The notes under the pieces: model-generated
What the model saw: the letters and a program-made list of their open reading frames with translations, nothing else
What the model was told of the DNA's origin: nothing
Databases searched by the model: none
In this document: positions 45,876-64,000 of the stretch, one piece after another
Layout: every line of letters starts with the position of its first letter
Position numbering within the stretch: position 1 is the stretch's first letter
NCBI GenBank assembly: GCA_041665305.1
Contig: JBAYJD010000009.1
Span: 665-64,664, forward strand
Length of the DNA: 64,000 nucleotides
Reading direction: 5' to 3'
From: Elusimicrobiales bacterium
GTDB taxonomy: Bacteria; Elusimicrobiota; Elusimicrobia; Elusimicrobiales; UBA9959
Made by a program: the position numbers and the translations under genes

Positions 45876-45888
45876 AAAAGGATCTTCC

Positions 45889-46902: not shown

Positions 46903-46964
46903 CCTGGGGCCTGCTATTCAATACGGTTTTCATTTAGAGGATCGTGGGATAAAAACATCGAATA

Positions 46965-47774: not shown

Positions 47775-47821
47775 GCAATGTCGTCTTACGACATTTTATT
47801 AAACCCTGTCCATCAATTATC

Positions 47822-50110
47822 ATGCCGCCTCACATAAGGAAAAAAATTTTGATCAAGGGCGTGGTCCAGGGGGTCGGTTTCCGGCCTCATGTCTATAAGC
47901 TCGCTCTTAAGCGCGGACTCTCCGGCTGGGTAAGGAATGACGCCTCCGGCGTGACTATAGAGGCGCAGGGGCGGACCGCGGATCTTGACCTGTTCATCAG
48001 TGAGCTCCAGACCCGCAAGCCGCCGGCTGCGCGGATCGATTCCCTTGATGCCGTGGAGCTCGCGGCCGGAACCGCCGGGGGGTTTTCCATCGTGAAAAGC
48101 GGGGGGAAAACCGGGGCTCAGGCGCGTATTCCCTCGGACCTGGCCCTTTGCGCGGATTGCCGCCGCGAGCTCCTGGACCCCTCCGACCGGCGCTATCTGT
48201 ATCCTTTCACCAATTGCACCAATTGCGGCCCGCGTTTTACCATAGTTAAAAGCATTCCTTACGACCGCCCGCTTACCACGATGAAGCGCTTTAAGATGTG
48301 TCCAGCCTGCCTCGCGGAATACCGGGATCCGCTGGACCGGCGTTTCCATGCCCAGCCCAACGCCTGCCCGGTCTGCGGTCCCAGGGTCAGCACGTTCCAG
48401 GGAGGCCGGCGCATAGACGGGCTCAAGGCCCTTGAGCTGGCGGCCCGGTACCTGAGAACTGGTAAGATCGTGGCCCTGCAAAGCCTCGGCGGGTTCCATC
48501 TTGCCTGCGACGCCCGCGACGCCGGCGCCGTGGACAGGTTGCGCCGCCTGAAGGACCGTCCCGCCAAACCGTTCGCCGTTATGGCCTTTGCGGCGGCGCA
48601 AGTCCGGGAATTATGTTTTCTTTCAAGGTCGGAACTGGCGGTCCTTGAATCGAGCCGGGCTCCGGCCGTGATGCTGAAAAAAAAGCGGCCGTTGTCGCCG
48701 GAGCCGGCCGCGCCCGGACTTGATACGATCGCGGTGATGCTGCCCTACACTCCGCTGCATGAGGCGCTTTTTCTGCTTTTACGCCGGGCCGGTTTTAAAG
48801 GTCCGCTGGTCATGACTTCCGGCAACCGCAGGGACGAACCCATCTCAAAAGACTTTGCAGGGGCCGAAGCGAACCTTGGGCCTTTGGCCGACCTTATAGT
48901 TTTCCACGACAGGGAGATCCATAACCGCGTGGACGACTCCGTCGGGTTTTGGGCCGGCGGAGCTTTCCGTCTTCTCCGACGGGCGCGCGGCTGGGTCCCG
49001 GATTCGGTCCAACTGCCCTTTGCAGGGGCCGGGAGCGCGCTTGGCTGCGGCGCGGACCTTAAAGGCGCTTTCTGCCTTACCCGCGGCAAAGAGGCTTTCC
49101 TTTCGCAGTACCTGGGCGACCAGGGGGAATGCCGGAACCAGGCTTTTTACGCCGAAACTCTGGCCAAGACCCGGGCCCTTTTAAAAGTGCGCCCGTCGCT
49201 TATCGCGCATGACCTGCACCCGGACTACTATTCTTCCGGTTTCGCGCGCGCCCTCAAAGGCATGAAGGTCCCGGTGCAGCATCATGTGGCGCATGTCCTG
49301 AGCGTCGCCGCCGAGCATGCCGTCGAAGGCCCGCTCATCGGCGCGGCGTTCGACGGCGCCGGTTACGGCGCGGACGGCAAGATCTGGGGTTCGGAATTTT
49401 TTGTTATAGAAGGGAACACCTGGCGGCGGGCCGCCCGCCTGAAATATTTCGCCCTGCCGGGCGGAGACGCGGCGGCGCGTGAAGTTTGGCGCCCGGCCTT
49501 GTCGCTGCTGAAAGACGCTCTCGGACCCGGCTGGAGGCGGGAGGCGGGGCCGCTTTTCCGCGGTGTGGCGGCGGAGACGCTGGCCGCCGTTGAAAAGATC
49601 TCCGATAAGGGGCTTAACACGCCTTTAACCTCCAGTATGGGACGGCTTTTTGACGCCGTCGGCTTTATCGCCGGGCTGGGCGTCGAGGCGACTTATGAGG
49701 GGCAGGGACCGATGGAGCTTGAAAGCCTGTGCCGCAGGCCTGCGGGGCGCGGTTACCGGTTCGATATGGAAAAAAAGGACGGTATATACATAATTGATCC
49801 GGCAAAAGCCGTGCTTGGGGCGTTGCGCGAAACCGGGCCCGGCCGTGCGCGGGCGATCTCGGAAAAATTTCACGCCTGCGCGGCCGAGATCCTGCTTAGA
49901 GCAGTTTCGGCCGTCAGCCGGGACACAGGTATAAGAACGGTGGTATTGTCGGGCGGAGTGTTTCAGAACCGCACCCTGCTGGAGCTTGCCCTTAAAAAGC
50001 TGGCGCGCGCGGGTTGTAAGGTGTTCGCCAACGAAAAAGTTCCCGCCAACGACGGCGGAATAGCCCTGGGCCAAGTTTACTACGCCCTGAAGAAATTCCG
50101 CCGGATTTAA
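47822..50110 (+). CDS. hypF: Carbamoyltransferase HypF
   Basis: GVVQGVGFRP, CTNCGPRF, RRFHAQPNACPVCGP, HDLHPDY, QHHVAH, SSMGRLFD, PANDGGIALGQ. Confidence 0.97.
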   Translation: MPPHIRKKILIKGVVQGVGFRPHVYKLALKRGLSGWVRNDASGVTIEAQGRTADLDLFISELQTRKPPAARIDSLDAVELAAGTAGGFSIVKSGGKTGAQARIPSDLALCADCRRELLDPSDRRYLYPFTNCTNCGPRFTIVKSIPYDRPLTTMKRFKMCPACLAEYRDPLDRRFHAQPNACPVCGPRVSTFQGGRRIDGLKALELAARYLRTGKIVALQSLGGFHLACDARDAGAVDRLRRLKDRPAKPFAVMAFAAAQVRELCFLSRSELAVLESSRAPAVMLKKKRPLSPEPAAPGLDTIAVMLPYTPLHEALFLLLRRAGFKGPLVMTSGNRRDEPISKDFAGAEANLGPLADLIVFHDREIHNRVDDSVGFWAGGAFRLLRRARGWVPDSVQLPFAGAGSALGCGADLKGAFCLTRGKEAFLSQYLGDQGECRNQAFYAETLAKTRALLKVRPSLIAHDLHPDYYSSGFARALKGMKVPVQHHVAHVLSVAAEHAVEGPLIGAAFDGAGYGADGKIWGSEFFVIEGNTWRRAARLKYFALPGGDAAAREVWRPALSLLKDALGPGWRREAGPLFRGVAAETLAAVEKISDKGLNTPLTSSMGRLFDAVGFIAGLGVEATYEGQGPMELESLCRRPAGRGYRFDMEKKDGIYIIDPAKAVLGALRETGPGRARAISEKFHACAAEILLRAVSAVSRDTGIRTVVLSGGVFQNRTLLELALKKLARAGCKVFANEKVPANDGGIALGQVYYALKKFRRI

Positions 50111-50113
50111 AGT

Positions 50114-51481
50114 CTACGGATTCAACCACTGAAGGAATTCGTCCCATTTCCCGTCGACCGACCAGGCAAGCTTCGAATAATTCGCGTCGTAGCCGTACAT
50201 GGGAAGATAGACGCCCAATCCGGCGGAAGTTTTGTATTCCGCGCCTGAAGTGGCGTTCTTTAAAACTATTTTGCCGCCGATAAAGTTTATCAGTTCCTTG
50301 CTTTTCGACTTCAATTCGGCGGAGCCGGTGTTGGACGCGACCTGCGTAAGAAAGCCGGTGAAATCCCTGGAATCCATGCCTGCGTATTCCTTGGTTCCGG
50401 CCATGGCTCGTTTCAGGATGTCTTTTTCTCCTTTGGCCATGGCCAGTCCGGCCCACTCGTCCGCCAGTTGGCGGAAAGCGGCCATGTTACCGGTGCTCAC
50501 GGCTGAGATTGTGGAGTCCTGGCCCTTGACTCTGTAGGACTGGTTGTAGCCTCCCACCGCAGCCGCAGCCATGACTTCAGGCGTCAGGCCGGTCCGGTTC
50601 TTGCGGACCCGGTCAAGAAAAAGGTCGTAAGCCCAGCCGTCGTTCGGTTCGATCTCTTCGGATCCCACGATCAACGGCACAGAGTCCTTTAATTCGTATA
50701 CGACTTCGCTCATCTGCATAAGACAGGCGTCGGAGGCGTAAAGGTCCACGCCGCCGATCTTTTTCAACGCCAGTCCCAATTGTACGGTGGTGATGCCGTT
50801 GCCGGTCTGAGAGTCGTAAGAAATGCCTTTTGTCATGGACTTGAGATCCGTAGACCTGGATCTCCAGCCGTCGCCGTGATTCCACACGATCAGCATGTAG
50901 TGCCTGGCGGGGTAGCGGGTTTTGGCCCAGACCGCGAAATCCGCCAAGTGGTTATAATCCCCCATATCCGTCTTGCCGAGGGTTTCGAGCAGTTTTGAAT
51001 TTATTTTCTGATTGTCGGTATCCTTTACTATTTCGTACCGCCTAATGCCTTCCCAGCCGGCGGAATCGCCGTTCTGGACGGAGGTGTCCCTGCCGCCTAC
51101 ATGAAAAAGAGGCGTGACCCACGGCGGCTCGACCGTCGCCGGATCGGTAAGATAAAACGGCGCCGCGGCGGCGAGCCGGCCGGATTCCGTCACGATGTTG
51201 ATGTTCGGCGCCGGTCCGACGGCTTCCATCTCGTTAAGGTCCTTGAGGATATAGTTGGAAAGATCGTTCTTGCCGTTCATGTAAACCATGATGGTCCACT
51301 CTTTAACGGTCTTCGCCGCCGTTTCGTCTGAAGTGGGCGCGGCCGGAACGGATATTTTTTCGGCCTGGATAAAGGCGGGTTTCAAAGCCGGGCCGTTATC
51401 GAAAGGAGATCCCTCGGCCCGCGCGCCGGCGGCCAGGAACATAGCCGGGATCAGTAGATTGGTCATGCCGATCTTTTTCAT
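50114..51481 (-). CDS. Clostripain-family (C11) protease, secreted; paralog of 10388-11767
   Basis: WTIMVYMNG, DMGDY, VWNHGDGW, ISYD, DACLMQ, GSEE; SD AAGGAG. Confidence 0.9.
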   Translation of the reverse strand: MKKIGMTNLLIPAMFLAAGARAEGSPFDNGPALKPAFIQAEKISVPAAPTSDETAAKTVKEWTIMVYMNGKNDLSNYILKDLNEMEAVGPAPNINIVTESGRLAAAAPFYLTDPATVEPPWVTPLFHVGGRDTSVQNGDSAGWEGIRRYEIVKDTDNQKINSKLLETLGKTDMGDYNHLADFAVWAKTRYPARHYMLIVWNHGDGWRSRSTDLKSMTKGISYDSQTGNGITTVQLGLALKKIGGVDLYASDACLMQMSEVVYELKDSVPLIVGSEEIEPNDGWAYDLFLDRVRKNRTGLTPEVMAAAAVGGYNQSYRVKGQDSTISAVSTGNMAAFRQLADEWAGLAMAKGEKDILKRAMAGTKEYAGMDSRDFTGFLTQVASNTGSAELKSKSKELINFIGGKIVLKNATSGAEYKTSAGLGVYLPMYGYDANYSKLAWSVDGKWDEFLQWLNP

Positions 51482-51679
51482 TTTAACTCCTTGCAAAATA
51501 TAGCCGTTCGTTTTACGGCATGTTATTCCGCCTGACCATAGTATAGAGCATAACGAAACCGTTTTCTTGGGCTAAAAGGGCAGCTTTTGGAGCAATTATG
51601 GCCCGCTCCTTCTGGGGCTAAAGACCTACTGATTATTTCCATCGGCGGCGGCGGTATTTTTGATAAAATATCCGTTCTT

Positions 51680-52543
51680 ATGCCCAGGCTTCCGCTCAAA
51701 TTTATCCTTCCGCCGCTTCTTTTGTCCCTGCGACCCTGCGTTTGCGCCCAGTTGCCGGGGCCCGTGGCCGAGCCGGATATACAGGTAAGCACCGCCTCGC
51801 TCCTGGAACAACTGGCCTATATTCCGGATTACTCCATTTCGTTGGCCAGCGCGGCTTCGCAGGCGGTCACGGAGGAGGATGTCGTGGACCTGGAGGAAGG
51901 GGAGGAAAGCGACGCTGATATCTTTATCAGCAGCGCGCTGTCGCATACCCCCGAGCCTGTGAATCTGGGCGGCAACGGCAGGCTCACTCTGACCCGCAAC
52001 GATAACGGGGAAAAACTTACCGTGCGCTACCGCAACCCGGACGGTTCCTACGACGCCGAAGCCCTGGCCAGACTGGACCACCTCATGCGCTGCAGCCTTA
52101 CCGGGCGCGAGATCCGGATGTCCGTAAAACTTATAGAGTTGCTGGACGCCGTGGAGGATAAGTTCGGAAAAAAAGGCCTTACCCTTTTAAGCGGCTACCG
52201 CACGGCAAAAAATAACAGGCAGACCGCGGGCGCGGTTAGGCACAGTCTGCATCTGCTGGGCTGGGCCGCGGACATCAAGGTCCCCGGCTATAGCTCGACC
52301 AGGATAAAAAAATACGGCCGCAAGCTCTGGATCGGAGGGGTGGGATATTATCCCAATAAAGGGTTCACTCATCTGGATGTCGGCAGGCCCCGGTATTGGG
52401 CGGTCAGCCGTCCGCCGCACAGGCGCCGCATCCGCCGCTCGGCGGCCAGGACGGCGGCGCGCAAAACGCCGGTCCGGCGCGGATCTGCGGTCCGGACGGC
52501 TAAGACCGCCGCAAAACCGGGTTTGTTAAAACGGAAATCCTGA
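51680..52543 (+). CDS. YcbK/DUF882 (peptidase M15) family protein with basic C-terminal tail
   Basis: SGYRT..NN, SLHLLGWAADI, GGVGYYP..GFTHLDVG. Confidence 0.88.
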   Translation: MPRLPLKFILPPLLLSLRPCVCAQLPGPVAEPDIQVSTASLLEQLAYIPDYSISLASAASQAVTEEDVVDLEEGEESDADIFISSALSHTPEPVNLGGNGRLTLTRNDNGEKLTVRYRNPDGSYDAEALARLDHLMRCSLTGREIRMSVKLIELLDAVEDKFGKKGLTLLSGYRTAKNNRQTAGAVRHSLHLLGWAADIKVPGYSSTRIKKYGRKLWIGGVGYYPNKGFTHLDVGRPRYWAVSRPPHRRRIRRSAARTAARKTPVRRGSAVRTAKTAAKPGLLKRKS

Positions 52544-52840
52544 CCACGCCGGGCGCCTGGTACTTCCGGGGTTTTTTCCGCCGCGTGGAAATCTTATATA
52601 ATTATTTCGCGGCGGCATTCGCGGGGGAGTCAATGCGGCTTGGACAGCCGCGGTATGGGGGATCGTTATAGCCGGGGGAACGCTAGCTAAGGTCGTGTCG
52701 CGGCATTTTACCGGAATGCCGGTTACGGGATAATCGTAACGCGGTATGAGGGTTCTTTGTCCTTGTTTTGTTTGAACTTTCAGGCCGAGAAAAAATGAGG
52801 GTATTTCGTAAGTAGAACTGCCGTCGGATGGGGGGGCAAT

Positions 52841-53290
52841 ATGAACAAATGTGACGCCGGAGTGGCGATACTTATGGCCGAGGATGACGACGGCCACGCG
52901 CTGCTGGTGAGGGAGCGGTTCGAAAGCATAGGGCTTAAGAATCCCGTAACGCGGTTCAAGGACGGGCAGGAGATCTGGGACTTTCTTTCCGGGGTCTCAA
53001 GCCCCGGCCTGGAACCAGGCAGGGGTTATCTTCTACTGCTGGACATCCGCATGCCGCGGCTGGACGGCATAGAAGTGCTGCGGCGCGTCAAGGGCGATCC
53101 GCGTCTTAAGAATATCCCTGTGATAATGCTCACCACCACCGATGAGCCCGCGGAAATACATACTTGTTATGAGCTCGGCTGCAATAATTATCTGACAAAG
53201 CCGGTGGAATTTGACAAATTCATAGAAGTGATCAAACGGCTGGGGCTTTTTCTGATGATAGTCGAAGTGGCTAAGATCAAGGCGCAATGA
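52841..53290 (+). CDS. Single-domain response regulator (Rcp1-like)
   Basis: MAEDD, LLDIRMP, MLTTT, CYELGCNNYLTKPV. Confidence 0.92.
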   Translation: MNKCDAGVAILMAEDDDGHALLVRERFESIGLKNPVTRFKDGQEIWDFLSGVSSPGLEPGRGYLLLLDIRMPRLDGIEVLRRVKGDPRLKNIPVIMLTTTDEPAEIHTCYELGCNNYLTKPVEFDKFIEVIKRLGLFLMIVEVAKIKAQ

Positions 53291-53291
53291 A

Positions 53292-56200
53292 ATGACGACA
53301 AAAATAGAGCCGAAGGAAGGCTTTATCCTTATAGTGGAGGACGACATAGGCCTCGGCCGGCTGGAGGCGGAACGCCTTGCGCCGCTGGGGTTTAAGCTAC
53401 GTCACGCGGCCAGCGCAGGGGAAGCCCGCGCGATCCTTATAAAAGCCGCCCCGGACCTTATGCTGCTGGATTATTCCCTGCCGGATTCCAATGCTGTGGA
53501 CTTCCTGAAAGAACTCCGGGAGAGCGGCGGTGCCGTCCCGCCGTTTGTGATCGTTACCGGCCGCGGAGATGAAACCGTCGCGGTCGACTCCATGAAGTGC
53601 GGAGCCGTGGATTATATAATCAAGAGCGGCGACTTCCTTGAGAACCTGCTGCCGGCGGTCGCGAAAGCGCTGGAAAAAATAGCGCTTTTGAAAAAACTTG
53701 AGGATGCCAGGAGGAGTACCGCGAAAAATCTGCGCCTTTATAACTTTCTGGCTCAGGTAAATCTGGCCTCTTCCCGGACAAAGGACCGTGTGTTGCTCTT
53801 CAGAAGGATCTGCGAGATCGCCGTAAAGAACGGCGGCATGCGGATGGCCTGGATAGGCAGACCTGATAATGATCTCGGACGGATAATCCCGCTGTGCTGG
53901 GCGGGTTTCGTCGACGGCTATCTGGACCTGATAGAGATCGATCTGGGAGTGGAAAGCCCCAGGTCCAAAGGTCCGACCGGAGCTTCCGTTTCCAGCGGAG
54001 AGCTCCGCGCCTGTTCCGACATCGCGTCCGATCCGCTCATGGCCCCGTGGAGGGAAAAAGCTCTTGAGCGCAATTACAGATCCTCCGCCGCCATTCCTCT
54101 GGTGGAATGCGGCAAGCTGGCGGCCGTGCTGACGCTGTATTCGGATCAGTCGGAGTTCTTTACCGGAGACGAGTTGGAACTCCTTAACGAGATCAAGGCC
54201 GATATCTCCCTGGCGCTGGATGCTATTTCGGTGGAAGAAAAGCGCTGCGCCGCCCAGGAGGTGCTGAACCGCACGGCCGGCCAGCTGGCCCATGTGATGG
54301 ATGCCACCTCCGTCGTAATTCTCACAATGCGGCACAGAGCTTCCGGTATGAACATAAAATGGGTAAGCGGCAATGCGGAGGCTCTGACCGGTTTTTTACC
54401 GGTGGAAATACTGCTGCCGGGCTGGTTGGAGAAGAATCTCCATCCGCAGGATAAAGCCATGGTCGAGACCGGCCAAAAGGACCTCTTGCGGACAGGCTCC
54501 GTAACGCAGGACTTCCGGTTCAAAAAAAAGAACGGCGGCTATTTCTGGGTCCACGCCCAACTTAAAGTCGTCTCGGCCGAAGCCGGGGAAATCATCGGTT
54601 CCTGGACCGACATCACTCCGCTGAAAGAGTCGGAAATGCGTTTCCAGGAATTATTCGAGAAGGTTCCCGTCGGTTACCAGTCGTTGGACGGCGGTGGGAA
54701 CCTGCTGGCGGTGAATGAGACCTGGACCGGCATCTTCGGTTATACCAGGGAAGAAGCTCTCGGCCGCAATTTCGCGGAGTTCCTGTCTTCCGGATCTAAA
54801 AATGCGTTCGCCGCTAGTTTCACCGCGTTCATGGCCTCCGGGGAAAGCGCGGGGGTGGAGCTCGAAATAAAAAGAAAGGACGGTTCCGTCCGCCATATCG
54901 CTTTCAACAGTAAGGCGGGCCATAACCCGGACGGCAGCTTTAAACAGGCGCACTGTGTGGCCGCAGATATAACGGAAAAGAAAAAAAGTGAAAGCCGCTT
55001 CAGGGATCTGCTGGATTCCCTGCCGGGGGGCGTTATAGTCAGGTGCGGTCCGGAAGTGATCTATGTGAACGCCAGCGGCCTGAAGATGATGGGTTTTAAG
55101 AACGAACGGGCACTGCTGGGCCGCGAGGTGCTTACGCTGCTGCCGGAGGAACTGCGTCCTGATTTCCGAAGACGCATGGAAGAGATAGATTCTCGCGGTA
55201 TCGTGACCCCGCCCATGCCGGTGCGTCTGCCCAGGCACGACGGTTCGATAGCGGACATAGAGATTTCCGGCGCCCCCATTGATTTCGGCGACAGGAAATG
55301 CGGATTGGTTTTCTTTAACGACATTTCGGAACGGAAAAAAGCCGAACGCCTTATGACCGAGATGTCCAATATGCAGCGCGTGGAATCGTTGGGCGCCCTG
55401 GCGGGAGGCATAGCCCATGACTTTAACAATATGCTGACCGGCATAATGGGCAACCTGTCCCTGCTGTCCGCAAGGTCCGATCTTGATCCCGGCGCAGCCG
55501 CGATCATACACGATACGCTGGAGGCCGTCAATAGCGCTAAAAGCCTGACGGCGCAGCTGCTGGCTTTTTCAAAAGGCGGCCGGCCGATAAAAAAGGAATT
55601 CTGCCTTGGGACCGCGCTTAATGAGATCTTCCAGCTTTCCACCAGTGGTACGAAAGCGGCATGTAAGATCGAAATTCCGGAAGATCTTTGGAGCGTGAAC
55701 GGCGACGAAAACCAGATAAAACAGGCCGTAAACAATCTGCTGCTTAACGCCATACAGGCCATGCCGGCGGGTGGAAAACTTGAGCTCTCGGCCGGCAACA
55801 TCAACTGTTCCGCCGTTCCCGGCCTGGCTCCCGGCGATTGCGCGCGGATCACCGTTTCGGACACAGGTATTGGAATACCGACACAATACATGGACCGTGT
55901 TTTTGAGCCTTACTTCACCACAAAGACCGCCGGTCACGGCCTGGGGCTTTCCATGACCTGGTCGGTCATCAAGAACCATGGCGGACACCTGGAGGCAGTC
56001 TCCGAGCCGGGCAAGGGTACCACCTTCACGATCTATCTGCCGGCCACCGGGCGCCGGATTATTGGAACGAAGGAACAGAGATCCGAGATCCAAAAAGGTT
56101 CCGGCAGCGTGCTGGTCCTGGAGGATGAGGAAGTGGTGAGCAGGGTGATCAAAAGGATGCTTGAGCAGCTGGGTTATTCCTGTCGGCTCACCTCCGATGG

Positions 56201-56477
56201 AACCGCGACCTTGGACTGTTACCGGAAAGAAAGAGCTGCCGGCAGGCCTTTCGACGCCGTAATAATGGACCTCACTATTTCCGGCGGCCAGGGCGGAAAG
56301 GAAGCGGTGCGCGAACTGCGCAAGATCGATCCGGAAGCGCGGGTAATAGTTTCAAGCGGCTACTCTGATGAGGTCGTAATGGCTGATTACAAGGATTACG
56401 GTTTCGACGCGGTCCTGCCCAAACCGTACAAATACGAAGACCTGGCCGAAATCATGTCCCGTCTTCTCAAAAAATAA
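53292..56477 (+). CDS. Cytoplasmic hybrid histidine kinase (REC-GAF-3xPAS-HisKA-HATPase-REC)
   Basis: IVEDD, KGPTG/RSSAAIPL GAF, PAS ends TDIT/ADIT/NDIS, GIAHDFNN, NAIQAM, GHGLGL, MDLT, PKPY. Confidence 0.93.
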   Translation: MTTKIEPKEGFILIVEDDIGLGRLEAERLAPLGFKLRHAASAGEARAILIKAAPDLMLLDYSLPDSNAVDFLKELRESGGAVPPFVIVTGRGDETVAVDSMKCGAVDYIIKSGDFLENLLPAVAKALEKIALLKKLEDARRSTAKNLRLYNFLAQVNLASSRTKDRVLLFRRICEIAVKNGGMRMAWIGRPDNDLGRIIPLCWAGFVDGYLDLIEIDLGVESPRSKGPTGASVSSGELRACSDIASDPLMAPWREKALERNYRSSAAIPLVECGKLAAVLTLYSDQSEFFTGDELELLNEIKADISLALDAISVEEKRCAAQEVLNRTAGQLAHVMDATSVVILTMRHRASGMNIKWVSGNAEALTGFLPVEILLPGWLEKNLHPQDKAMVETGQKDLLRTGSVTQDFRFKKKNGGYFWVHAQLKVVSAEAGEIIGSWTDITPLKESEMRFQELFEKVPVGYQSLDGGGNLLAVNETWTGIFGYTREEALGRNFAEFLSSGSKNAFAASFTAFMASGESAGVELEIKRKDGSVRHIAFNSKAGHNPDGSFKQAHCVAADITEKKKSESRFRDLLDSLPGGVIVRCGPEVIYVNASGLKMMGFKNERALLGREVLTLLPEELRPDFRRRMEEIDSRGIVTPPMPVRLPRHDGSIADIEISGAPIDFGDRKCGLVFFNDISERKKAERLMTEMSNMQRVESLGALAGGIAHDFNNMLTGIMGNLSLLSARSDLDPGAAAIIHDTLEAVNSAKSLTAQLLAFSKGGRPIKKEFCLGTALNEIFQLSTSGTKAACKIEIPEDLWSVNGDENQIKQAVNNLLLNAIQAMPAGGKLELSAGNINCSAVPGLAPGDCARITVSDTGIGIPTQYMDRVFEPYFTTKTAGHGLGLSMTWSVIKNHGGHLEAVSEPGKGTTFTIYLPATGRRIIGTKEQRSEIQKGSGSVLVLEDEEVVSRVIKRMLEQLGYSCRLTSDGTATLDCYRKERAAGRPFDAVIMDLTISGGQGGKEAVRELRKIDPEARVIVSSGYSDEVVMADYKDYGFDAVLPKPYKYEDLAEIMSRLLKK

Positions 56478-56642
56478 CCCCTTCAAAAGGAGCCTGGCTC
56501 CTTTTGATCGTTTTAAGGTCAAAAACCCCAAAAAGGAGGCTGGCTCCTTTTGATAGGGCTATTGGCTGCGCGGTGGTAGGTCCTTTGGCTCATCTCGGGA
56601 AGGCTGACGCTTGGTATAATTGGTCTAACTGGAGTTCTGAAT

Positions 56643-57974
56643 ATGACCGGGATAACACATGGTTTACAGGTGTACGACCGATGGGAAACGCAAACCGGGA
56701 GGGTGCGCGGCCGAGTTATGGCCCGCCGGCTGGCGGATTATGTGCGCTATGCCGCGCGGCTGCCGTTCTACAAGCGGCGTCTGGCCGCTTTCAGTCCCGG
56801 CGCGCAATATCCTTTGGCGGGAACGCCGGTGCTGGAAGCCAAAGACCTGCGACGGCTGCTGCCGCCGCGGAGCGAAGAACTTATAGCCGACAAGTCTTGC
56901 GGCCGCAACATCTTCCAAAGCGGCGGGACGACCGGCTGTCCCAAAACCACGATCTTCAGCCATAAGGAGCTTGAGGGGCTTTACCTGCCCAACGCGCGGG
57001 GTTTTCACGCCGTCGGCCTGGACCGTTCCGACAGGGTCGCCAACCTCTTCGCGGTTGGCGGGCTGTACATGACCTTTATCCACATCCACCGTATGCTGCA
57101 GGAATTCGGCTGCTCCAACTTTCCGTTCTCGAACCACACGCCGTCCGAATTCGTGCACCCTGTCTGCCGGCTTTTTAAGATCAACTGTTTCGCCGGCATC
57201 GCCAGCGTGGTGCTCAACACTTTGCGCGATATGGAAAAAATGGGGCTCAGGGGGATACGGATAGAGAAGATCTATTACGGCGGGGAGCATCTATACGAAG
57301 CGGACAAGGCCGAACTGCGGGAGAAGTTCGGCGCGAAGCTCATTGCCGCTCCGGGGTACGGCACGGTCGATTCATGGTATATCGGCTACCAGTGCGTGCG
57401 GTGTCCGACCGGCGTGTTCCACGCGCATGACGACCAGGTCTACATAGAACTGGTCGATGAGGAAACCGGCCGCCATTGCGCTCCGGGCGAAACGGGCATG
57501 ATGTATGTCACGGCGTTTCCCAGGCTGCTGACCCCGATAGTGCGCTACAGGGTGGGTGACCTGGCCCGCTGGCTGCCCGGGCCCTGCTCCTGCGGCAGGA
57601 CGACCCCGCTGTTCGAACTGCGCGGCCGCGGCGACGATGTGTTGCGGATAGGTTTTGATTCGGTGGATTACGGTTTTATCCAGAAAATGATAGGAAGGGT
57701 AAAAGGGCTGCTGGGTTCGGCGCAGATGGAAAAGCGGCGCGAGAACGGCCGGGACCGGCTGATACTGCGCGTTGAAACCCCGGCCCCGAAAAGCGCCCGC
57801 GCCGTGATGCGCAAGGTCCTCGAGCGCGAAATACTTAAGGAAAGACCCACGCTGAACAAGGCGGTTTCCACGGGAGCCGTGCTGCCCCCGGAGATAGAGC
57901 TTCTCGCCCCCGGCGCGATCCCCCGCAACCCGCGCACCGGCAAGCTCGTCCGGGTGCTGGATGTCCTGCGATGA
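56643..57974 (+). CDS. Phenylacetate-CoA ligase (PaaK)-like adenylate-forming enzyme
   Basis: QSGGTTGCPK, GYGTVD, PIVRYRVGD, GRGDD, RNPRTGK. Confidence 0.85.
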   Translation: MTGITHGLQVYDRWETQTGRVRGRVMARRLADYVRYAARLPFYKRRLAAFSPGAQYPLAGTPVLEAKDLRRLLPPRSEELIADKSCGRNIFQSGGTTGCPKTTIFSHKELEGLYLPNARGFHAVGLDRSDRVANLFAVGGLYMTFIHIHRMLQEFGCSNFPFSNHTPSEFVHPVCRLFKINCFAGIASVVLNTLRDMEKMGLRGIRIEKIYYGGEHLYEADKAELREKFGAKLIAAPGYGTVDSWYIGYQCVRCPTGVFHAHDDQVYIELVDEETGRHCAPGETGMMYVTAFPRLLTPIVRYRVGDLARWLPGPCSCGRTTPLFELRGRGDDVLRIGFDSVDYGFIQKMIGRVKGLLGSAQMEKRRENGRDRLILRVETPAPKSARAVMRKVLEREILKERPTLNKAVSTGAVLPPEIELLAPGAIPRNPRTGKLVRVLDVLR

Positions 57975-59428
57975 GCCGCAACAGCGCCAGGCTGGAGATC
58001 CCCGCGCGGGAAGAGTTCCTCGCCCCGGCCGCGGATTTCCTTTTGTCTTTTGCGGAGCACCGCGGCTGCGTGGAGCTTGAGCGGCTTAATGCGGCTGCGA
58101 CCGCGGCGATCTCCATAGCCGTAGAGAACAGCGCGCGCGGACATTCCGATACGGCCGTGGCGATCGAGGTCTTTGAGACGGGCGGAAAACTGTGCGTTGA
58201 GATCTGCAACCGGGGGCTGCCGGTGCTTCTTGACGGTCCGAGTTCGGTAAACGCCGCTTATTTTGAAAAATTCCAGGCGGTGCGGCGGCACGCGGATTAT
58301 GCCGCTGCGGAGAACAGGGGCCGGGAGGGGCAGGTCATCGTTTTTGAATTTTCGCTCGCCGCCGCCGGATCCGCGCAGCCGGAGACCCTGTTCCGCGAGA
58401 TCCCTGAGGACGAGGTCTGCACTATAAGACGGCTTTGCCCAGGCGAAGAGACGGCTTTGAGCCGGTTGTTCTATCTTGTTTACGGTTATGATTACATAAA
58501 CGAGGTCGTCTATTACCCGGACAAGCTCAAAGCCATGCTTTTATCGGGAGACCTGGTCTCGATAGTGGCGGCGAGGCCCAACGGAAGGCTTGTGGGGCAT
58601 GTGGGGCTGCTGCGCCGCGGCAGAACGCCGCCCGTTTACGAAGCGGCTATGGGAGTTAACGACCCCGCCGTAAAATCCCGCGGATTGTTCGGGAAGGTGT
58701 TCCAAAAGGCCATCGAGACGGCTCATTCCATGGAAATGAGGTACTGCCTGTTCGATTTTGTCACCAATCACGACCGCAGCCAGCGGCATATCGCGAAGTA
58801 CGGGACCTGCGACATGGCCGTCTATGTCGGCTGCCAGTCGCGCGAAACCCAGGCAAGGCTGGACAAACTGGGCATGGGCGCCGATCCCGAGGGAATGGAC
58901 CGCTACAGCCTGCTCGTCTCGATCATTCCCATGTCGCCGCGGCCTTTCGGCGGGATCGTCAGCCTGCCGGAATCCATAGGCGGCAACTACGGGTTCCTGC
59001 TCAAGCCTCTGGGGCTTGAGTGGACGCCCGCCTCCCGTTTCGAGGCGCTGCCCGGCGACGGGGTTTTCAGCGCCAAATTCCAGGAGGAGCAGTCCTCCGT
59101 GGTTTTCGATATGAGCAAGCCGGGCCGCGGAGCTTTGACCGGAGTGCTGCGGGATTGGCGCGCTCTTCTGCGCGACGGTTACCAATACGCGGCGGTCGAT
59201 GTTCCGGCGGACGCCTCCGGCCTGGGGGAATTGCGCGAAGCCCTTTCGGAGAACGGTTTTTTCGGCGCGGGCTTCGTTCCCTACCGGATGTCCGACAAAC
59301 TGGGTTTCCGGTTCCAGGCGGTCGGTCCCGTTAAAGTCGCCTTTGACAAGATCCGCATAGCCGGGGAGTCCGGCAGGAGGCTGCTGGCCCTGGTGCGCGA
59401 AGAGCACGATGCCGTCCAGAAAATATGA
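57971..59428 (+). CDS. Fusion of degenerate RsbW-like HATPase domain and GNAT-like domain(s)
   Basis: LEIPAREEFL N-terminus; IRRL, LVGHVGL, VKSRGLFGKV, NHDRSQR. Confidence 0.65.
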   Translation: MSRNSARLEIPAREEFLAPAADFLLSFAEHRGCVELERLNAAATAAISIAVENSARGHSDTAVAIEVFETGGKLCVEICNRGLPVLLDGPSSVNAAYFEKFQAVRRHADYAAAENRGREGQVIVFEFSLAAAGSAQPETLFREIPEDEVCTIRRLCPGEETALSRLFYLVYGYDYINEVVYYPDKLKAMLLSGDLVSIVAARPNGRLVGHVGLLRRGRTPPVYEAAMGVNDPAVKSRGLFGKVFQKAIETAHSMEMRYCLFDFVTNHDRSQRHIAKYGTCDMAVYVGCQSRETQARLDKLGMGADPEGMDRYSLLVSIIPMSPRPFGGIVSLPESIGGNYGFLLKPLGLEWTPASRFEALPGDGVFSAKFQEEQSSVVFDMSKPGRGALTGVLRDWRALLRDGYQYAAVDVPADASGLGELREALSENGFFGAGFVPYRMSDKLGFRFQAVGPVKVAFDKIRIAGESGRRLLALVREEHDAVQKI

Positions 59429-60546
59429 GCGAACTATTTCCGAACAGCGAAGCCGTTTCGCGCGTCCGCGACCCTCATATCTGGTCGCCTGAAAAAGAGC
59501 GGCTTTTTGTCCTGGCCTGCCGCGAACTCGCCGTGTTTCACGCCGCGCATTCTCCGGAGACCGCCGCCATCTACCGGCGGCGCGGCTTCGATCCCGGGTC
59601 CATCCGTTCCATGGACGATGTGGCGCGCCTCCCCATGATAGGCGTGGCGGCGATGAAGAGGTATCTCCTTACCAGCCTGCCGCACGAGCGGGCCGCGCTC
59701 AAGCTCACCTCTTCCGGCACGCGCGGGCAGAAAACCCGGATCTGGCTCGACGAAGCCGGCCTGGCCCGGGTGCAGGCCATGCTGGCCGCGCAGTGGGAAC
59801 AGGAGGGGCTGGTTTCCGGCAAGCCCGCCAACTATATAACCTTCTCGTACGATCCGGCGGACGCCAACGATCTGGGCATAGCTTTTACCAGCAGGAATCA
59901 GCAGCGTTTCGCGCCGGCGGCCGGGAATTTCTACGCCCTGAGGAAGGACCCCTCCGGCGAATGGCGGTTCCTGAGGGAGGAGGCGCGGCGCACGCTTGAG
60001 GAATACGCGGCGCAGGGGCTGCCTGTGCGTATTTTCGGGATCCCCAGCTTTATCCACGACTTCCTGGAGCGCGCGGAGAAACCCCTGCGCCTGCCGCCCG
60101 GCAGCTGGATGCTGACCGGCGGCGGCTGGAAAGCCGCCGAGGATAAAAAAGTATCGCGCGATTTTTTCCGCCGCAGGGCGGCTGAGGCGTTCGGCCTTGA
60201 GCTTGAAAATATCCGCGACGGCTACGGCATGGCCGAGCATTGCGCCCCGTACCTTGAATGCCGCCGCCACCGGTTCCATGTTCCGGCCTTCGCGCGCGTT
60301 CTCGCCCGCGCGCCCGCGGACCTTTCGGTTCTGCCTCCTGGCCGGGCGGGTTTGCTGGAGCTTATAAGCCCCTACAACGCCATGATGCCCAACCTCGCGA
60401 TCCTGTCCACGGACAACGGGTTCATCGACCCGGAGCCGTGCCCCTGCGGTTACAATTCTCCGACCTTTACGCTTCTCGGGCGAGCCGGTCTGGTGAAACA
60501 CAAAGGCTGCGCCATAGCCGCGGCGGAAATACTCAAGAGGACATGA
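59425..60546 (+). CDS. LuxE-family acyl-protein synthetase
   Basis: LTSSGTRG, LTGGGWK, IRDGYGMAEH, ILSTD, LGRAG...KGC with C-terminal Cys. Confidence 0.88.
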   Translation: MSELFPNSEAVSRVRDPHIWSPEKERLFVLACRELAVFHAAHSPETAAIYRRRGFDPGSIRSMDDVARLPMIGVAAMKRYLLTSLPHERAALKLTSSGTRGQKTRIWLDEAGLARVQAMLAAQWEQEGLVSGKPANYITFSYDPADANDLGIAFTSRNQQRFAPAAGNFYALRKDPSGEWRFLREEARRTLEEYAAQGLPVRIFGIPSFIHDFLERAEKPLRLPPGSWMLTGGGWKAAEDKKVSRDFFRRRAAEAFGLELENIRDGYGMAEHCAPYLECRRHRFHVPAFARVLARAPADLSVLPPGRAGLLELISPYNAMMPNLAILSTDNGFIDPEPCPCGYNSPTFTLLGRAGLVKHKGCAIAAAEILKRT

Positions 60547-60547
60547 T

Positions 60548-63124
60548 ATGGGAGAACAATACCTGTTTGGAGAATGGCGTTCCGGCGGTCCCCCGTTAAG
60601 CGCCGCCGACGCCGCCCGGCTGTGCGGAGAAGCGGAGCGCCTGCGCCGTCCGGTCGCGGATTATCCGCTGGACAAGGCGCTGCGCCTGCTGGGGCGTACG
60701 GGGGCGCGCTGGCGGGACGCGGACTACGGACCCCGTAAAAAAATGCAGGCGGAACTGCCGGCGGTCACGGGGTTTTCTCCGGAAATGGTGCGCCTGGGTC
60801 TCGACGAGGTCTGCCGCGTGTTCGATCCGGAGCTCCTTGAGCGCAAGCGTTCGGCCGAGCTGCCGGAAGCCGCGGGACTGGCCTGGGAACCGGCGGGTGT
60901 CGCGCTCCATGTGCTGGCGGGGAATGTTTTTATCGGCGCGGCGGGATCGCTGGCGGCGGGAGTTCTCACGCGCAATGTGAACATCCTTAAAATGCCGTCT
61001 TCTGAAAATATTTTCCTGCCCGAGCTTGTTCGCTCCCTTTGCGAGTGCGACGAAGAAGGATTCCTTTCCCGTTCCATCGCCGTGGTCGAATACGGTTCGT
61101 CCCAGGCCGATGTGATAGCCGAATTCAAGCGAAGGGCTGACTTGGTGGTGGTCTGGGGCGGAGAGGGCGCCGTCCGCTCCTACCGCGACGGTTTGCCTGC
61201 GCGCACCAGGCTTATAGTGTTCGGTCCCAAGATCAGCATGGCGGTCGTGACGCGCAAAGGCCTGGAGGCCGCCTCGCCGGAGGCGACCGCGCTGAAGCTC
61301 GCGCGCGAAATGTCGATCTGGGACCAGAACGCCTGTACCGCCCCCCAGGTCTGTTATGTCGAGGGCGCTGCGTCGGCCCGCGCCCTGGCCGAGGCCCTGC
61401 CGAGGGCTCTGGACGCCGCCGCCCTGGAGCTTCCCCCTGGGGATCTCGATGACGCCTCCGCGGCGGAGATCCGCAAACTCCGCGGAATTTTCGAGGTGGC
61501 CGAGGCGCGGGGCGAAGGGCTGTTGCGCGAATCCCCGAAAGGCCTCGACTGGTCGGTCTTCCTGGACCACGACCAGACCTTGGAACCTTCCCCGCTCCAC
61601 CGCACCCTGCGCGTGATCCCTTATGAAAAGATAGACGAGCCGCTGGCTGCGGCCGGAGCGATGCGCGGTTATCTCCAGACGGTGGGCCTGGCCTGCACCC
61701 CGGAAGAAGGCGCGCAGCTGGGGCCGCTGTTTTGCGCGGCGGGCGCGGTGCGCGTGCTGGAGCTCGGCCGCATGTCCGGCGGCGAGATCGACGATCCGCA
61801 TGACGGCGCCTACGATCTTCCCCAGTTCATGAACAGGGTCATAATCCGCGCCGGCGGAAATTCACGCGCTCCGGGCCGTTACCGCGCGCTGATAGATTCA
61901 CGGCTGCGCAGGCTGCTCGATGCCGCCCGCCGTTCGCCGTTCTATGCCAGGCGGCTTGAAGGCCTGAAGATAGAGACGGTCGAAGACCTGCCCGCTATCC
62001 CGCGGCTGACCCGCGCGGAAATGGACTCCAATATGCCGCCCAAAGGCGAAGGGCTTTGTACCGGAGCCTGGACGGGGGGGTATGTTTCGCGCAGCGGCGG
62101 TTCCACGGGCGAACCGAAGTTCTCCGTATACGACCGCTTCGACTGGGAGCGCATGATAGCCCATGCCGTAGGCGTGCTGCGCGCCGCCGGCATCTCGGAA
62201 ACGGACAGACTGGGGAACCTGATGGTGGCGGGTGACCTTTACGGCAGCTTTGTTTCCTTCGACCACATAAACTACCGGCTTGGCGCCGCCAGCTTCGCCT
62301 TCGCCAACACCGCGCCTCCGGAAGCTTTTGTCGACGCATGCCGGAAATTCAAGATCAACGCCGTGGAGGGGATCACGCCGTTCATGCTGCCTTTCCTGCG
62401 CAAGGCGAAGGAACTGGACCCTTCGCTGACCCTGGAAAAGGTCGTTTATGCCGGCGGTTCCCTGACCGATTCCGAACGGGTCTGGCTTGAGAAGGAACTT
62501 AAAGCGCGGCGCATAGCCTCCATCATCGGCGCGAACGACGGCGGGCAGATCGGCTACCAATGCCGCGAACTCGGCGGCAATATGCATCATGCGACCGACG
62601 ATTTCAATTATCTTGAGGTCACGGACGCCCAGGGCCGCCCTGTGCCGGAGGGGACCGAGGGCCTGCTGCTTATCACCAGCCTGGAGAAGTACGCGTACCC
62701 GCTTATCCGCTACGCGATCGGCGACAAGGGCCGTTTTGTCCCCGGCCGCTGCGCGTGCGGCCGGCCGGACCGTCTTTTTGAATTTCTCGGCCGGGCCGAC
62801 GAGATCCTCCGCGTGGGACTGCTCTCCGCCGAGTATTCCGACTTTTCGCGCGCGCTCGCTCATCTGCCGGTCTCGGCTTTGCAGCTTGCGGCCCGGCGCG
62901 TCGAGGGCGGGGAATGCCTTATCGTCAGGGTCGAGACGGCGGAGCCGTCCGGGGAGCTTGAAGAGAGCGTGCGTCGGGCGCTGCTGGCTTCGCTGCCCAA
63001 GGTCGGTGCATCCCTTAAAAACGGTTCGCTTTTCAGGTTAAGCGTGGAATTCTCCGCTCCCGGCGGTCTCGCGCGCAATCCGCGCAGCGGCAAGGTAAGG
63101 TGCACGGTGGACGAACGGTCATGA
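60548..63124 (+). CDS. LuxC-type acyl-CoA reductase fused to C-terminal PaaK-like adenylation domain
   Basis: HVLAGNV, KMPSSE, VWGG, FGPKIS, DQNACTAPQ, PHDG; then SRSGGSTGEPK, PLIRYAIGD, GRADE, RNPRSGK. Confidence 0.88.
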   Translation: MGEQYLFGEWRSGGPPLSAADAARLCGEAERLRRPVADYPLDKALRLLGRTGARWRDADYGPRKKMQAELPAVTGFSPEMVRLGLDEVCRVFDPELLERKRSAELPEAAGLAWEPAGVALHVLAGNVFIGAAGSLAAGVLTRNVNILKMPSSENIFLPELVRSLCECDEEGFLSRSIAVVEYGSSQADVIAEFKRRADLVVVWGGEGAVRSYRDGLPARTRLIVFGPKISMAVVTRKGLEAASPEATALKLAREMSIWDQNACTAPQVCYVEGAASARALAEALPRALDAAALELPPGDLDDASAAEIRKLRGIFEVAEARGEGLLRESPKGLDWSVFLDHDQTLEPSPLHRTLRVIPYEKIDEPLAAAGAMRGYLQTVGLACTPEEGAQLGPLFCAAGAVRVLELGRMSGGEIDDPHDGAYDLPQFMNRVIIRAGGNSRAPGRYRALIDSRLRRLLDAARRSPFYARRLEGLKIETVEDLPAIPRLTRAEMDSNMPPKGEGLCTGAWTGGYVSRSGGSTGEPKFSVYDRFDWERMIAHAVGVLRAAGISETDRLGNLMVAGDLYGSFVSFDHINYRLGAASFAFANTAPPEAFVDACRKFKINAVEGITPFMLPFLRKAKELDPSLTLEKVVYAGGSLTDSERVWLEKELKARRIASIIGANDGGQIGYQCRELGGNMHHATDDFNYLEVTDAQGRPVPEGTEGLLLITSLEKYAYPLIRYAIGDKGRFVPGRCACGRPDRLFEFLGRADEILRVGLLSAEYSDFSRALAHLPVSALQLAARRVEGGECLIVRVETAEPSGELEESVRRALLASLPKVGASLKNGSLFRLSVEFSAPGGLARNPRSGKVRCTVDERS

Positions 63125-64000
63125 TGAAACGCCCTCTTATTTTACGGCACCGCGGCATGTTCCTGGTGTGGCTGGGCCAGGCCCTGAGCCAGATGGGCAC
63201 GCGCATGTACCAGATCGCGCTGATCTGGTGGCTGGCCGTCCACGCGGGGGCGGCGGGGGGCAGGGCCGCCGGCTTGTTCATGGTCGCCAGCGCTCTCCCG
63301 TCGCTGCTGCTGGTGAAAGCCATAGGCCGCATTATAGACCGCGGACCCGTAAGGCCGGTACTCGTGCGCTGCGATCTTCTTTCAGCGCTTGTCGTTTCCT
63401 GCGTGGCCGCGGCGCTGCGTTATGGCCTGCTCGGCATCGCCTCCGCCTGCTTCGCCGGCCTCGCGGTGGCCGCACTCGCGGCCTGTTTCGACCCGGCCCT
63501 GAACAAAGCCGTGGCGGAATTGGCCCCGCCGGACGAACTGCCGGAGGCGGTCGCCTGGCAAAGCTCGACGCAATCGCTGGCCAGTTTTGCCGGCGCCATG
63601 GCCGGCGCGGTCCTTATCGACCGCATAGGCCTGACCGGAGTGGCGGTCGTCAACGCCGCCAGCTTTCTCGTTTCCGCGGCCTGCAACGCCGTTCTGCCGC
63701 TGCGGGCGGCCGCCGCGGGCAAAACGCATGCCCCCGCGCGCGCGGGCTGGGCGATACTTTCCTGCGCGCCCGCGCTTAAGCGCGTCCTGATCGGTTTCGG
63801 ATTCGTCAATTTTTTTATGACCCCCATTCTTGTGACGCTGCCGCTCTATACCGCGCGCGTCCTGCACGCGCCGGCCTCCACGCTCGGCCGTCTTGAAGCC
63901 GCGCTGTGGCTCGGGCTGCTTTCCGGAACCCTGTCCGCCGGCCGCCGCCGCTCCGCCGCCGCCTTGCGCACCGGCGCCGTCTGCATGGCCGTAATAGGCT
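63121..64000 (+). CDS. MFS exporter (DHA3/EntS-like), partial at window end
   Basis: MMKRPLILRHRGMFLVWLGQALSQMGTRMYQIALIWW..., GRIIDR; ATGA overlap; frame open to the edge. Confidence 0.85.
   Translation, partial: MMKRPLILRHRGMFLVWLGQALSQMGTRMYQIALIWWLAVHAGAAGGRAAGLFMVASALPSLLLVKAIGRIIDRGPVRPVLVRCDLLSALVVSCVAAALRYGLLGIASACFAGLAVAALAACFDPALNKAVAELAPPDELPEAVAWQSSTQSLASFAGAMAGAVLIDRIGLTGVAVVNAASFLVSAACNAVLPLRAAAAGKTHAPARAGWAILSCAPALKRVLIGFGFVNFFMTPILVTLPLYTARVLHAPASTLGRLEAALWLGLLSGTLSAGRRRSAAALRTGAVCMAVIG

Follow-up and report, generated by a model that had tools for sequence, protein, structure and literature searches.

A probable distant relative of the leupeptin operon in an uncultured groundwater Elusimicrobiales bacterium

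Genes and boundaries of the locus

The window, a stretch of 64,000 nucleotides from the 95.8%-complete genome of an uncultured groundwater bacterium, ends within an operon of six genes, g1 to g6 (Table 1). The genes are closely packed, with ATGA overlaps in the sequence at 57971, 59425 and 63121 and a 1-nt gap before 60548. An earlier note on this DNA had described five tightly coupled genes; its coordinates, overlaps and gap hold as given, but the genes number six, the sixth lying past 64000. Reading the genome beyond that point, a check that the note had proposed, showed that the MFS gene ends at 64341, 341 bases past the window edge, and is followed by an ATGA-coupled gene for a tandem-GNAT-fold protein. 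The three adenylation units counted in the note are borne out as g1, g3 and the C-terminal half of g4, and the cysteine motif that it had seen in a LuxC-type reductase, DQNAC, occupies residues 259–263 of g4. Its RsbW-GNAT protein, g2, does carry both domains by profile and by fold; the RsbW-like part, however, is without kinase motifs.

Table 1. Features of the operon and its left flank (positions in the window unless stated otherwise).
Feature	Position	Strand	Remarks
g1, stand-alone PaaK-like adenylating ligase	56643..57974	+	443 aa, LeupC counterpart
g2, RsbW/SpoIIAB-fold domain + LeupD-like GNAT + C-terminal alpha/beta domain	57971..59428	+	485 aa
g3, LuxE-family acyl-protein synthetase	59425..60546	+	373 aa, LeupA counterpart
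g4, LuxC-type reductase::PaaK-like ligase fusion	60548..63124	+	858 aa, LeupB counterpart
g5, MFS exporter	63121..64000 in window	+	cut by edge; full gene 406 aa, end 64341
g6, tandem-GNAT-fold protein	64338-65462, extended numbering (G000:C9:65002-66126)		wholly beyond window; ATGA-coupled to g5
Two near-identical terminator-like hairpins	56483..56551	.	between upstream hybrid histidine kinase and g1; likely left boundary

The evidence for the hairpins consists of consensus matches only, and such sites show no enrichment (12 against 12.6 in shuffles). A promoter scan was uninformative. The two-component genes that flank the cluster were considered as parts of the operon and set aside; they flank it here, but did not emerge as a neighbour family common to the other loci. 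The cluster is also covered, with 0 differing letters, by contigs from another study. The contig of one sequencing run, which may be the source of the window itself, spans 50000–64000, also with 0 differing letters.

Enzymes, exporter and GNAT proteins

Pfam LuxE and LuxC are both matched by proteins of the window. The synthetase g3 keeps the lysine of its GGGWK motif and a C-terminal Cys362 (KGC) that aligns with the LuxE cysteine, while the reductase half of g4 has its catalytic Cys263 inside DQNAC; the LuxE lysine and cysteine and the LuxC cysteine named in PMC9157457 are conserved. By sequence, g3 is far closer to LeupA of the leupeptin operon (36%, E 4e-72, 220 bits) than to luminous LuxE (7XC6_E; phmmer E 2e-16). 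The fused g4 aligns with LeupB at full length (27% over 807 aa, E 3e-63). Equivalog cut-offs are not reached by g3 for LuxE (60.5 against 550 bits) or by g4 for LuxC (91.8 against 750 bits), and the 646-bit cut-off of the catabolic PaaK equivalog, TIGR02155, is likewise reached by neither g1 (99.4) nor g4 (53.6). In g1, the P-loop SGGTTG lies at residue 93 and the lysine motif RNPRTGK at 428. The protein matches LeupC at 30% (E 8e-33), its best BLAST match in the leup reference locus being the C-terminal half of LeupB (134 bits, with LeupC at 119 bits), and is predicted to form an amide bond. PDB neighbours of the window's ligases are phenylacetate-CoA and aryl ligases, including AjiA1 and PaaK.

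The protein g2 combines an RsbW/SpoIIAB-fold domain (residues 1–130), a GNAT domain (residues ~150–325) and a C-terminal alpha/beta domain. Kinases of the RsbW/SpoIIAB type bind ATP through an N-box with Glu and Asn, a DxGxG motif and a lid. Across 97 homologues the N-box Glu and Asn are changed, the ATP lid is shortened and DxGxG is replaced by NRGxP (N in 92/97, P in all 97). The GHKL fold itself is common to g2 and the anti-sigma kinases (PDB 6M36, 1L0O): residues 4–130 align with 6M36 at Z 16.2 and rmsd 1.5 Å over 101 aligned positions, and the N-terminal domain matches 6M37 with a TM of 0.84. With the fold present and the ATP motifs lost, a kinase function was rejected, and the domain is likely an interaction module. 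A distant, stand-alone RsbW-GNAT protein in a genus relative keeps the RsbW ATP motifs. Searches of the g2 protein itself against Pfam and NCBIfam gave no match for either its RsbW-like or its GNAT domain. Its acyl-CoA motif, DPAVKSRGLF, is intact (G238 and F240 in 97/97 homologues, D231 in 90/97), and g2 aligns with LeupD by BLAST (25%, E 5e-9) and, for the GNAT domain, by HHalign (97.9%, E 5e-13). It is predicted to be the N-acyl capping enzyme.

In the second GNAT-fold protein, g6, the N-terminal domain is without the acyl-CoA pyrophosphate-binding motif A, which is absent from all 11 distinct g6 proteins of this operon variant and present in 34/34 GNATs of a three-gene cassette described below; the prediction for g6 is a subunit that is altered or has no catalytic activity. 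The exporter g5 is of the H+-antiporter/MefA-like MFS type, a subfamily that differs from the MdfA type beside the Klebsiella leup genes, and is 35% to the MFS protein of a Streptomyces leup-like cluster.

Relation to the leupeptin operon and the putative product

Li et al. 2020 reportedly described a leupeptin operon independent of NRPSs, leupABCD with an MFS gene. The operon is placed in Klebsiella michiganensis/oxytoca, Xenorhabdus bovienii and Photorhabdus (PMC8283571, PMC11480411, PMC11212599, bioRxiv 10.64898/2026.08.25.747093). According to PMC11212599, each amide bond of this pathway falls to a separate AMP-dependent ligase, whereas a reductase makes the aldehyde. The Klebsiella-type genes were retrieved with the published primers leupA_f and leupB_r (PMC8283571), whose 1,235-bp spacing was reproduced in 6/8 metagenome loci matched by leupA_f. 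The reference locus used here, L063, encodes MFS-LuxE-LuxC::PaaK-PaaK-GNAT, the leup composition listed in bioRxiv 10.64898/2026.08.25.747093; no Leup annotation was found in the supplements of PMC11480411.

Each of g1 to g4 matches one Leup protein, at identities of 25–36% overall. In both L063 and the window, only 1 nt separates a LuxE-type gene from the full-length LuxC::PaaK fusion behind it, and the gene of the stand-alone PaaK-like ligase overlaps that of the GNAT by 4 nt (C to D in L063). An adjoining MFS gene and the catalytic cysteines are kept as well, and no NRPS or carrier domain occurs among the genes. There are differences too. The order is A-B-C-D in leup and C-D-A-B-MFS-extra GNAT in the window, with the AB and CD blocks swapped; g2 has its extra RsbW-fold domain, the motif-less g6 is added, and the MFS belongs to another subfamily. 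The window enzymes form well-supported clades of their own, apart from Leup, in trees of which the LuxE one is a quick version only and the reductase one has no outgroup row. In a 34-domain ligase tree (midpoint root; deep forks weak at 80/56), LeupC groups with the ligase of the three-gene paralogue (96/93) and not with g1. Given the separate clades and this placement of LeupC, Leup substrates cannot be transferred to the window's enzymes. Uncharacterised leup-like clusters on plasmids of Streptomyces (for example NZ_CP034351, L060) and Salmonella (CP054717, L059) share the enzyme set of the window, and the Streptomyces cluster has an MFS of the g5 type (35%) and a g6-family GNAT (27%); however, in these clusters the GNAT keeps the acyl-CoA motif, an RsbW-GNAT is missing, and the enzymes group with Leup in the trees.

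The earlier note had recognised no characterised pathway with this layout and had named a match to one as what would refute it; leupABCD with its MFS gene is such a match. Its broader proposal was right, namely a pathway without luciferase in which a small molecule is activated, reduced, acylated and exported. Literature on this operon variant, or on LuxC/LuxE in Elusimicrobia, was not found in a search covering few subscription papers.

Considering the homology of g1–g4 to LeupC, D, A and B, the intact catalytic motifs and the conserved gene order, we think it likely that the operon is related to the leupeptin operon, though distantly and in a rearranged and larger form, and that it assembles an N-acyl peptide aldehyde out of free amino acids, with no need of carrier proteins, and exports it. 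We infer five biosynthetic steps, as we do the assignment of the Leup ligases to steps. An amino acid would be capped with an acyl group from acyl-CoA by the GNAT domain of g2. Next, g1 and the C-terminal half of g4, both PaaK-like ligases, would each adenylate a carboxyl and extend the chain by one amino acid. The resulting acyl-tripeptide acid would be adenylated by g3 and held as a thioester on Cys362. As in LuxE-LuxC, it would pass on to Cys263 in the reductase half of g4 and leave as the aldehyde with NADPH, before export by g5; g6 would likely serve as a non-catalytic partner. Since the ligases fall in clades far from LeupB and LeupC, the residues are probably not Leu-Leu-Arg and the product probably not leupeptin itself. 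Points against this reading are the low identities to Leup, the separate clades, the better BLAST match of g1 to LeupB than to LeupC and the different MFS subfamily. Moreover, the known products of PaaK-like ligases include esters, CoA-thioesters and aryl amides, and the partner enzyme of all 11 other genomes with this variant (see below) is missing in the window genome.

Distribution, a secreted partner and other readings

Among 401 Elusimicrobiota genomes, the operon variant of the window, termed type B, was recognised in 11 others by its LuxE gene (57–68% to g3). Conservation of gene order, a check named beforehand, was found: g1-g2-g3-g4 recurs in 7/8 other type-B loci, the eighth being cut by a contig end. 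Relatives of the operon add a gene absent from leupABCD, encoding a secreted protein-glutaminase-like enzyme. This papain-fold partner has an invariant Cys-His-Asp, signal-like N-termini and a match to the protein glutaminase PDB 8Z3I (E 4e-5). It is present in 12 of the 401 genomes, 11 of which are all the 11 non-self type-B genomes, with a search model built in part from 4 of those 11; the counts are not independent, as the genomes are kin, and Fisher tests of co-occurrence are for that reason given no weight. The gene lies in or adjoins the cluster in 9/11 of them; two further loci have it as well, one from Pseudobdellovibrionaceae and one labelled Pseudomonadota (L013, L014). Of 42 partner homologues whose contigs reach 10 kb or more, 26 lie on a contig equal in size to one with a g2 or g4 match, which is a proxy only.

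These associations are what favour a second reading, in which the partner either processes the exported peptide aldehyde, by cleavage or modification, into a signal (a pyrazinone, for instance) or has in that aldehyde its own dedicated inhibitor. The window genome would then be a partner-less version. Leup-derived pyrazinones could indeed come from proteolytic cleavage (PMC11480411). The window genome, however, has six genes with intact motifs and neither a partner gene nor a remnant of one by tblastn, profile search or six-frame hmmsearch --max (best E 4.7). Conversely, one genome (G357, 87% complete) has the partner with no cluster detected, and in another (G376) no cluster gene lies within ~8 kb of it. 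On this balance, and with related genomes behind the counts, the reading is unlikely.

Slimmer still are the prospects of a non-peptidic product made by LuxE/LuxC logic, be it an aryl or fatty aldehyde or alcohol, an N-acyl amino aldehyde or an amide. Such a product would suit ligases that are only ~30% like the Leup ligases, sit in separate clades and have the PDB neighbours listed above, and LuxE-LuxC pairs do occur in unrelated settings, for example a sugar-nucleotide locus (L058). The full-length LuxC::PaaK fusion, the LeupA-like LuxE with the same junction, the LeupD-like GNAT and the second ligase, however, together make up the leup combination, and no LuxD-type acyl supplier was found in the genome. 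That the genes are left over from a bioluminescence operon, or assist one by providing luciferase with fatty aldehyde, is highly improbable: the Pfam matches and the conserved residues for adenylation, Cys thioester, transfer and NADPH reduction are shared with the luminous LuxC-LuxE fatty-acid reductase (PDB 7XC6; PMC9157457), but the window reductase is fused to a ligase, the equivalog scores are far below their cut-offs, g3 is much closer to LeupA, and luxAB and luxD, which the earlier note had reported as absent from the window, did not turn up in the 95.8%-complete genome either (0 matches to luciferase PF00296 and to LuxD PF02273).

For the favoured peptide-aldehyde reading, the enzyme logic is already known from leupeptin, and the type of system is therefore not new. 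The present analysis adds the RsbW-fold domain without ATP motifs, the motif-less g6, the link to a partner gene and a three-gene paralogue that is near-core in the host family, its LuxE-type gene occurring in 44/46 genomes. In the window genome this three-gene cassette lies on contig C47, and its product would be expected to be one residue shorter. A carrier-free peptide-aldehyde pathway described from gammaproteobacterial pathogens would be widened to uncultured groundwater Elusimicrobiota, with a short form near a core gene set in the host family. New protease-inhibitor structures and new amide-forming biocatalysts may be expected from ligases this divergent, and the tightly linked secreted cysteine enzyme is a concrete candidate for what the product acts on or is processed by. 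More speculative, and on the whole doubtful, is a seven-gene make-export-process system in Elusimicrobiota, Bdellovibrionota and allies that pairs a peptide aldehyde with the secreted protein-glutaminase-fold cysteine enzyme, the three-gene paralogue being a housekeeping source of an inhibitor for the family's expanded set of clostripain proteases. If so, an RsbW domain without kinase activity and an inactive GNAT subunit would organise the synthesis of an undescribed peptide aldehyde; the secreted partner would convert that aldehyde into a signal or be held in check by it; and an endogenous clostripain inhibitor would provide family-wide small-molecule self-control of secreted proteolysis.

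The product likely acts as an inhibitor of cysteine or serine proteases, among them the 12 clostripain-family enzymes that the cell itself encodes. One of these 12 genes lies ~5 kb upstream (50114–51496) and was rejected as a linked part, since with so many in the genome proximity means little. Clostripain-family proteases occur in 46/46 genomes of the family, a family-level co-occurrence among kin that is confounded with genome size. Leupeptin itself inhibits a clostripain-like protease with an IC50 of 139 nM (PMC12280095).

Extent of the operon and its relation to leupABCD

The operon consists of genes for a PaaK-like ligase (g1), an RsbW-GNAT protein (g2), LuxE (g3), a LuxC::PaaK fusion (g4), an MFS exporter (g5) and a GNAT protein (g6). 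An earlier note had described the first five as a luciferase-less Lux-like operon, and their coordinates and overlaps were borne out exactly on reading the sequence. In the genome, G000, the window occupies C9:665-64664. Reading past position 64000 completed g5 and revealed g6, ATGA-coupled to it, so the five genes stand but the operon has six; an unrelated PAS histidine kinase gene follows. In Pfam and NCBIfam, the family scores of g1, g3, g4 and g5 lie far under the cut-offs of named equivalogs. A near-identical hairpin pair occurs inside the 165-bp gap 5' of g1, and elsewhere in the window HypD-, HypE- and HypF-like NiFe-hydrogenase maturation genes were recognized by eye, with a LysR-type regulator inserted between them.

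Features of the operon and of related loci (g5 and g6 in extended window numbering)
Feature	Location	Assignment	Basis
g1		PaaK-like	Pfam/NCBIfam
g3		LuxE	Pfam/NCBIfam
g4		LuxC + PaaK-like half	Pfam/NCBIfam
g5	63121-64341	MFS	Pfam/NCBIfam
g6	64338-65462		
Hairpin pair	window 56483-56551		
Hyp-like genes	window 43711-50110		
C11 protease gene	window 50114-51496 (-)		
Second cassette (L018)	G000:C47:2919-7975		
Partner	L022:2633-3697; homologues L013, L014, L016, L020, L021, L071, L089-L095	Cys-His-Asp enzyme	
Salmonella operon	L059:4719-10477		
Stand-alone RsbW-GNAT	L096:7728-9239 (G001); G003:C9		
Intact g6-family GNATs	L072:7752-8596; L074:7256-8518; L013:16438-17829		
Unfused LuxC trio (L058)	G003:C23		

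The leupeptin pathway of gammaproteobacteria employs such enzymes. The forward primer of the leupAB pair published in PMC8283571 (available excerpt) matched eight metagenome loci, and in six of these the pair spacing equaled the published 1,235 bp. Metagenome locus L063, which supplied Klebsiella-type LeupA-D for comparison, encodes an MFS protein, LuxE (378 aa), LuxC::PaaK (801), a PaaK-like ligase (446) and a GNAT (305); its four enzymes total ~5.8 kb, in agreement with the leup size excerpted from PMC8283571, and its composition agrees with the component list in the accessible part of bioRxiv 10.64898/2026.08.25.747093. In BLAST comparisons, g3 matched LeupA (36%, E 4e-72), g4 LeupB (27% across 807 aa, E 3e-63), g1 LeupC (30%, E 8e-33) and g2 LeupD (25% across 163 aa, E 5e-9; HHalign 97.9%). 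leupABCD, whose proteins match g1-g4, is thus a characterised cluster of such a layout, which the earlier note had not recognised. The window operon holds most of the defining parts of leupABCD, but its gene order differs: the 1-nt A-B gap and 4-nt C-D overlap are identical in both operons, so the AB and CD blocks are swapped in the window. Its sequence relates the window operon to the leupeptin operon, and it would work like leupABCD toward a predicted product. Available excerpts attribute leupeptin to a non-NRPS route that uses AMP-dependent ligases as separate enzymes, together with a reductase (PMC11212599), and describe the Klebsiella operon as yielding leupeptin, a Lys analogue and pyrazinones (PMC11480411). 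A leupABCD-like operon also occurs on the conjugative Salmonella enterica plasmid CP054717, at 52-73% to the Klebsiella-type proteins and with the upstream MFS present just as a 121-aa fragment.

Cluster versions, origin and the secreted partner

LuxC-family genes occur in 33 of 36 relatives within the family (UBA9959), and g3 homologues in 44/46 family genomes, 4/118 of a small-genome sister family and 71/401 across the phylum. The majority of the g3-homologue loci are of a three-gene type (GNAT-LuxE-LuxC::PaaK) with a conserved neighbourhood; this cassette is near-core in the family, beside genes for an NHL/TPR protein, an M29 aminopeptidase and a PorV-like protein. The genome under study, G000, carries one as well, with an intact GNAT and 27-38% identity to the window genes. 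The window's own variant, type B (LuxE identity of 57% or more), was found in 12 of 401 phylum genomes, G000 included. A third version in other Elusimicrobia (L079, L080, L084, L086) has the leup order MFS-LuxE-LuxC::PaaK-PaaK and is 43-60% identical to a Streptomyces plasmid cluster. Named homologue sources also include Bdellovibrionota, Riflebacteria, Vulcanimicrobiota and the cultured myxobacterium Pendulispora brunnea. In trees that took in 11 three-gene loci and left out the remainder, Leup, type-B and three-gene enzymes formed separate, long-branched clades, and LeupC grouped with the three-gene ligase rather than g1; on these groupings, the window operon's product is not deducible from leupeptin.

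The cluster's GC content is 63.7%, versus 57.0% for the genome and ~56% in both flanks. None of six genus relatives yielded a close RsbW-GNAT, and g3 and the g4 reductase group with copies from another family (support 96 and 81/84). Together these point to horizontal gain of the type-B cluster by G000; g1 groups differently. Cluster and upstream flank are contiguous on a contig of one run, which may be the source, and contigs from a second study match the cluster with zero differing letters; both datasets are groundwater metagenomes. Judged by its closest hits, the host is probably a member of Elusimicrobiota.

The majority of type-B clusters start with or include a partner gene for a secreted-type protein with an invariant Cys-His-Asp, a weak PF18626 hit and a match to protein glutaminase (PDB 8Z3I). 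With a search model to which 4 of the 11 other type-B genomes supplied sequences, the partner was found in 12/401 phylum genomes, namely all 11 and G357, where no cluster was detected. It is physically linked to the cluster in nine of the 11, with one more at a contig end and one apart; it was not found in G000. That this protein processes the cluster product, or is controlled by it, we consider unlikely.

Altered domains in g2 and g6

In the g2 structure model (pLDDT 90), residues 4-130 adopt an RsbW fold (Z 16.2, rmsd 1.5 A), and a GNAT domain lies behind it. Among 97 homologues the GNAT acyl-CoA motif is conserved, whereas the N-domain differs from RsbW kinases: the N-box Glu and Asn are substituted, DxGxG has become NRGxP, and the lid is shorter. 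Distant stand-alone RsbW-GNATs occur in two genus relatives, and the G001 copy, the one read, beside an amidohydrolase and an amino-acid ABC transporter, retains kinase-type motifs in an unrelated context; g2 is therefore likely a degenerate recruit from this wider family.

The g6 fold is a tandem GNAT. The N-terminal part of g6 has lost the VYG and acyl-CoA motifs in 11/11 distinct type-B clusters, whereas 34/34 three-gene cassette GNATs retain them; the C-terminal domain of g6 is still conserved. Some type-B clusters hold an intact g6-family GNAT adjacent or close to the copy lacking the motifs, which suggests that the gene was duplicated and one copy then became inactive.

Predicted product and a possible target

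The available text of PMC9157457 names LuxE Lys238/Arg355/Cys364 and LuxC Cys296. g3 retains GGGWK and the C-terminal GRAG..KGC (Cys362), the g4 reductase retains DQNAC (Cys263), and the ligase domains of g1 and g4 both keep the P-loop and terminal Lys motif. Judged from LuxE-LuxC chemistry and the number of enzymes, synthesis would probably begin with g2 capping an amino acid, to which g1 and the ligase half of g4 would add one residue each; g3 would then activate the resulting acyl-peptide acid and load it onto Cys362, the reductase half of g4 would accept it on Cys263 and release the aldehyde, and g5 would export it. This order predicts that the window operon makes a tripeptide aldehyde and the three-gene cassette a dipeptide aldehyde. 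We give little credence to a non-peptide aldehyde or amide as the product. Luminescence is scarcely conceivable, as the absence of luxAB and luxD noted for the window extends to the 95.8%-complete genome, in which searches for the luciferase and LuxD families gave no match. In another use of the same reductase pair, LuxE, an unfused LuxC and an acyl-CoA ligase form a trio within a nucleotide-sugar/glycan locus.

A peptide aldehyde may act on clostripain-family (C11) cysteine proteases; leupeptin inhibits a clostripain-like protease with an IC50 of 139 nM in the available part of PMC12280095. C11 genes number 12 in G000 and occur in 46/46 family genomes, mostly as several candidates each, and in 10/118 of the sister family, where the four genomes that bear a cassette are also the four in which C11 is strong and multi-copy. 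As related genomes are not independent samples and genome size varies along with these counts, this distribution is suggestive only of a possible target.
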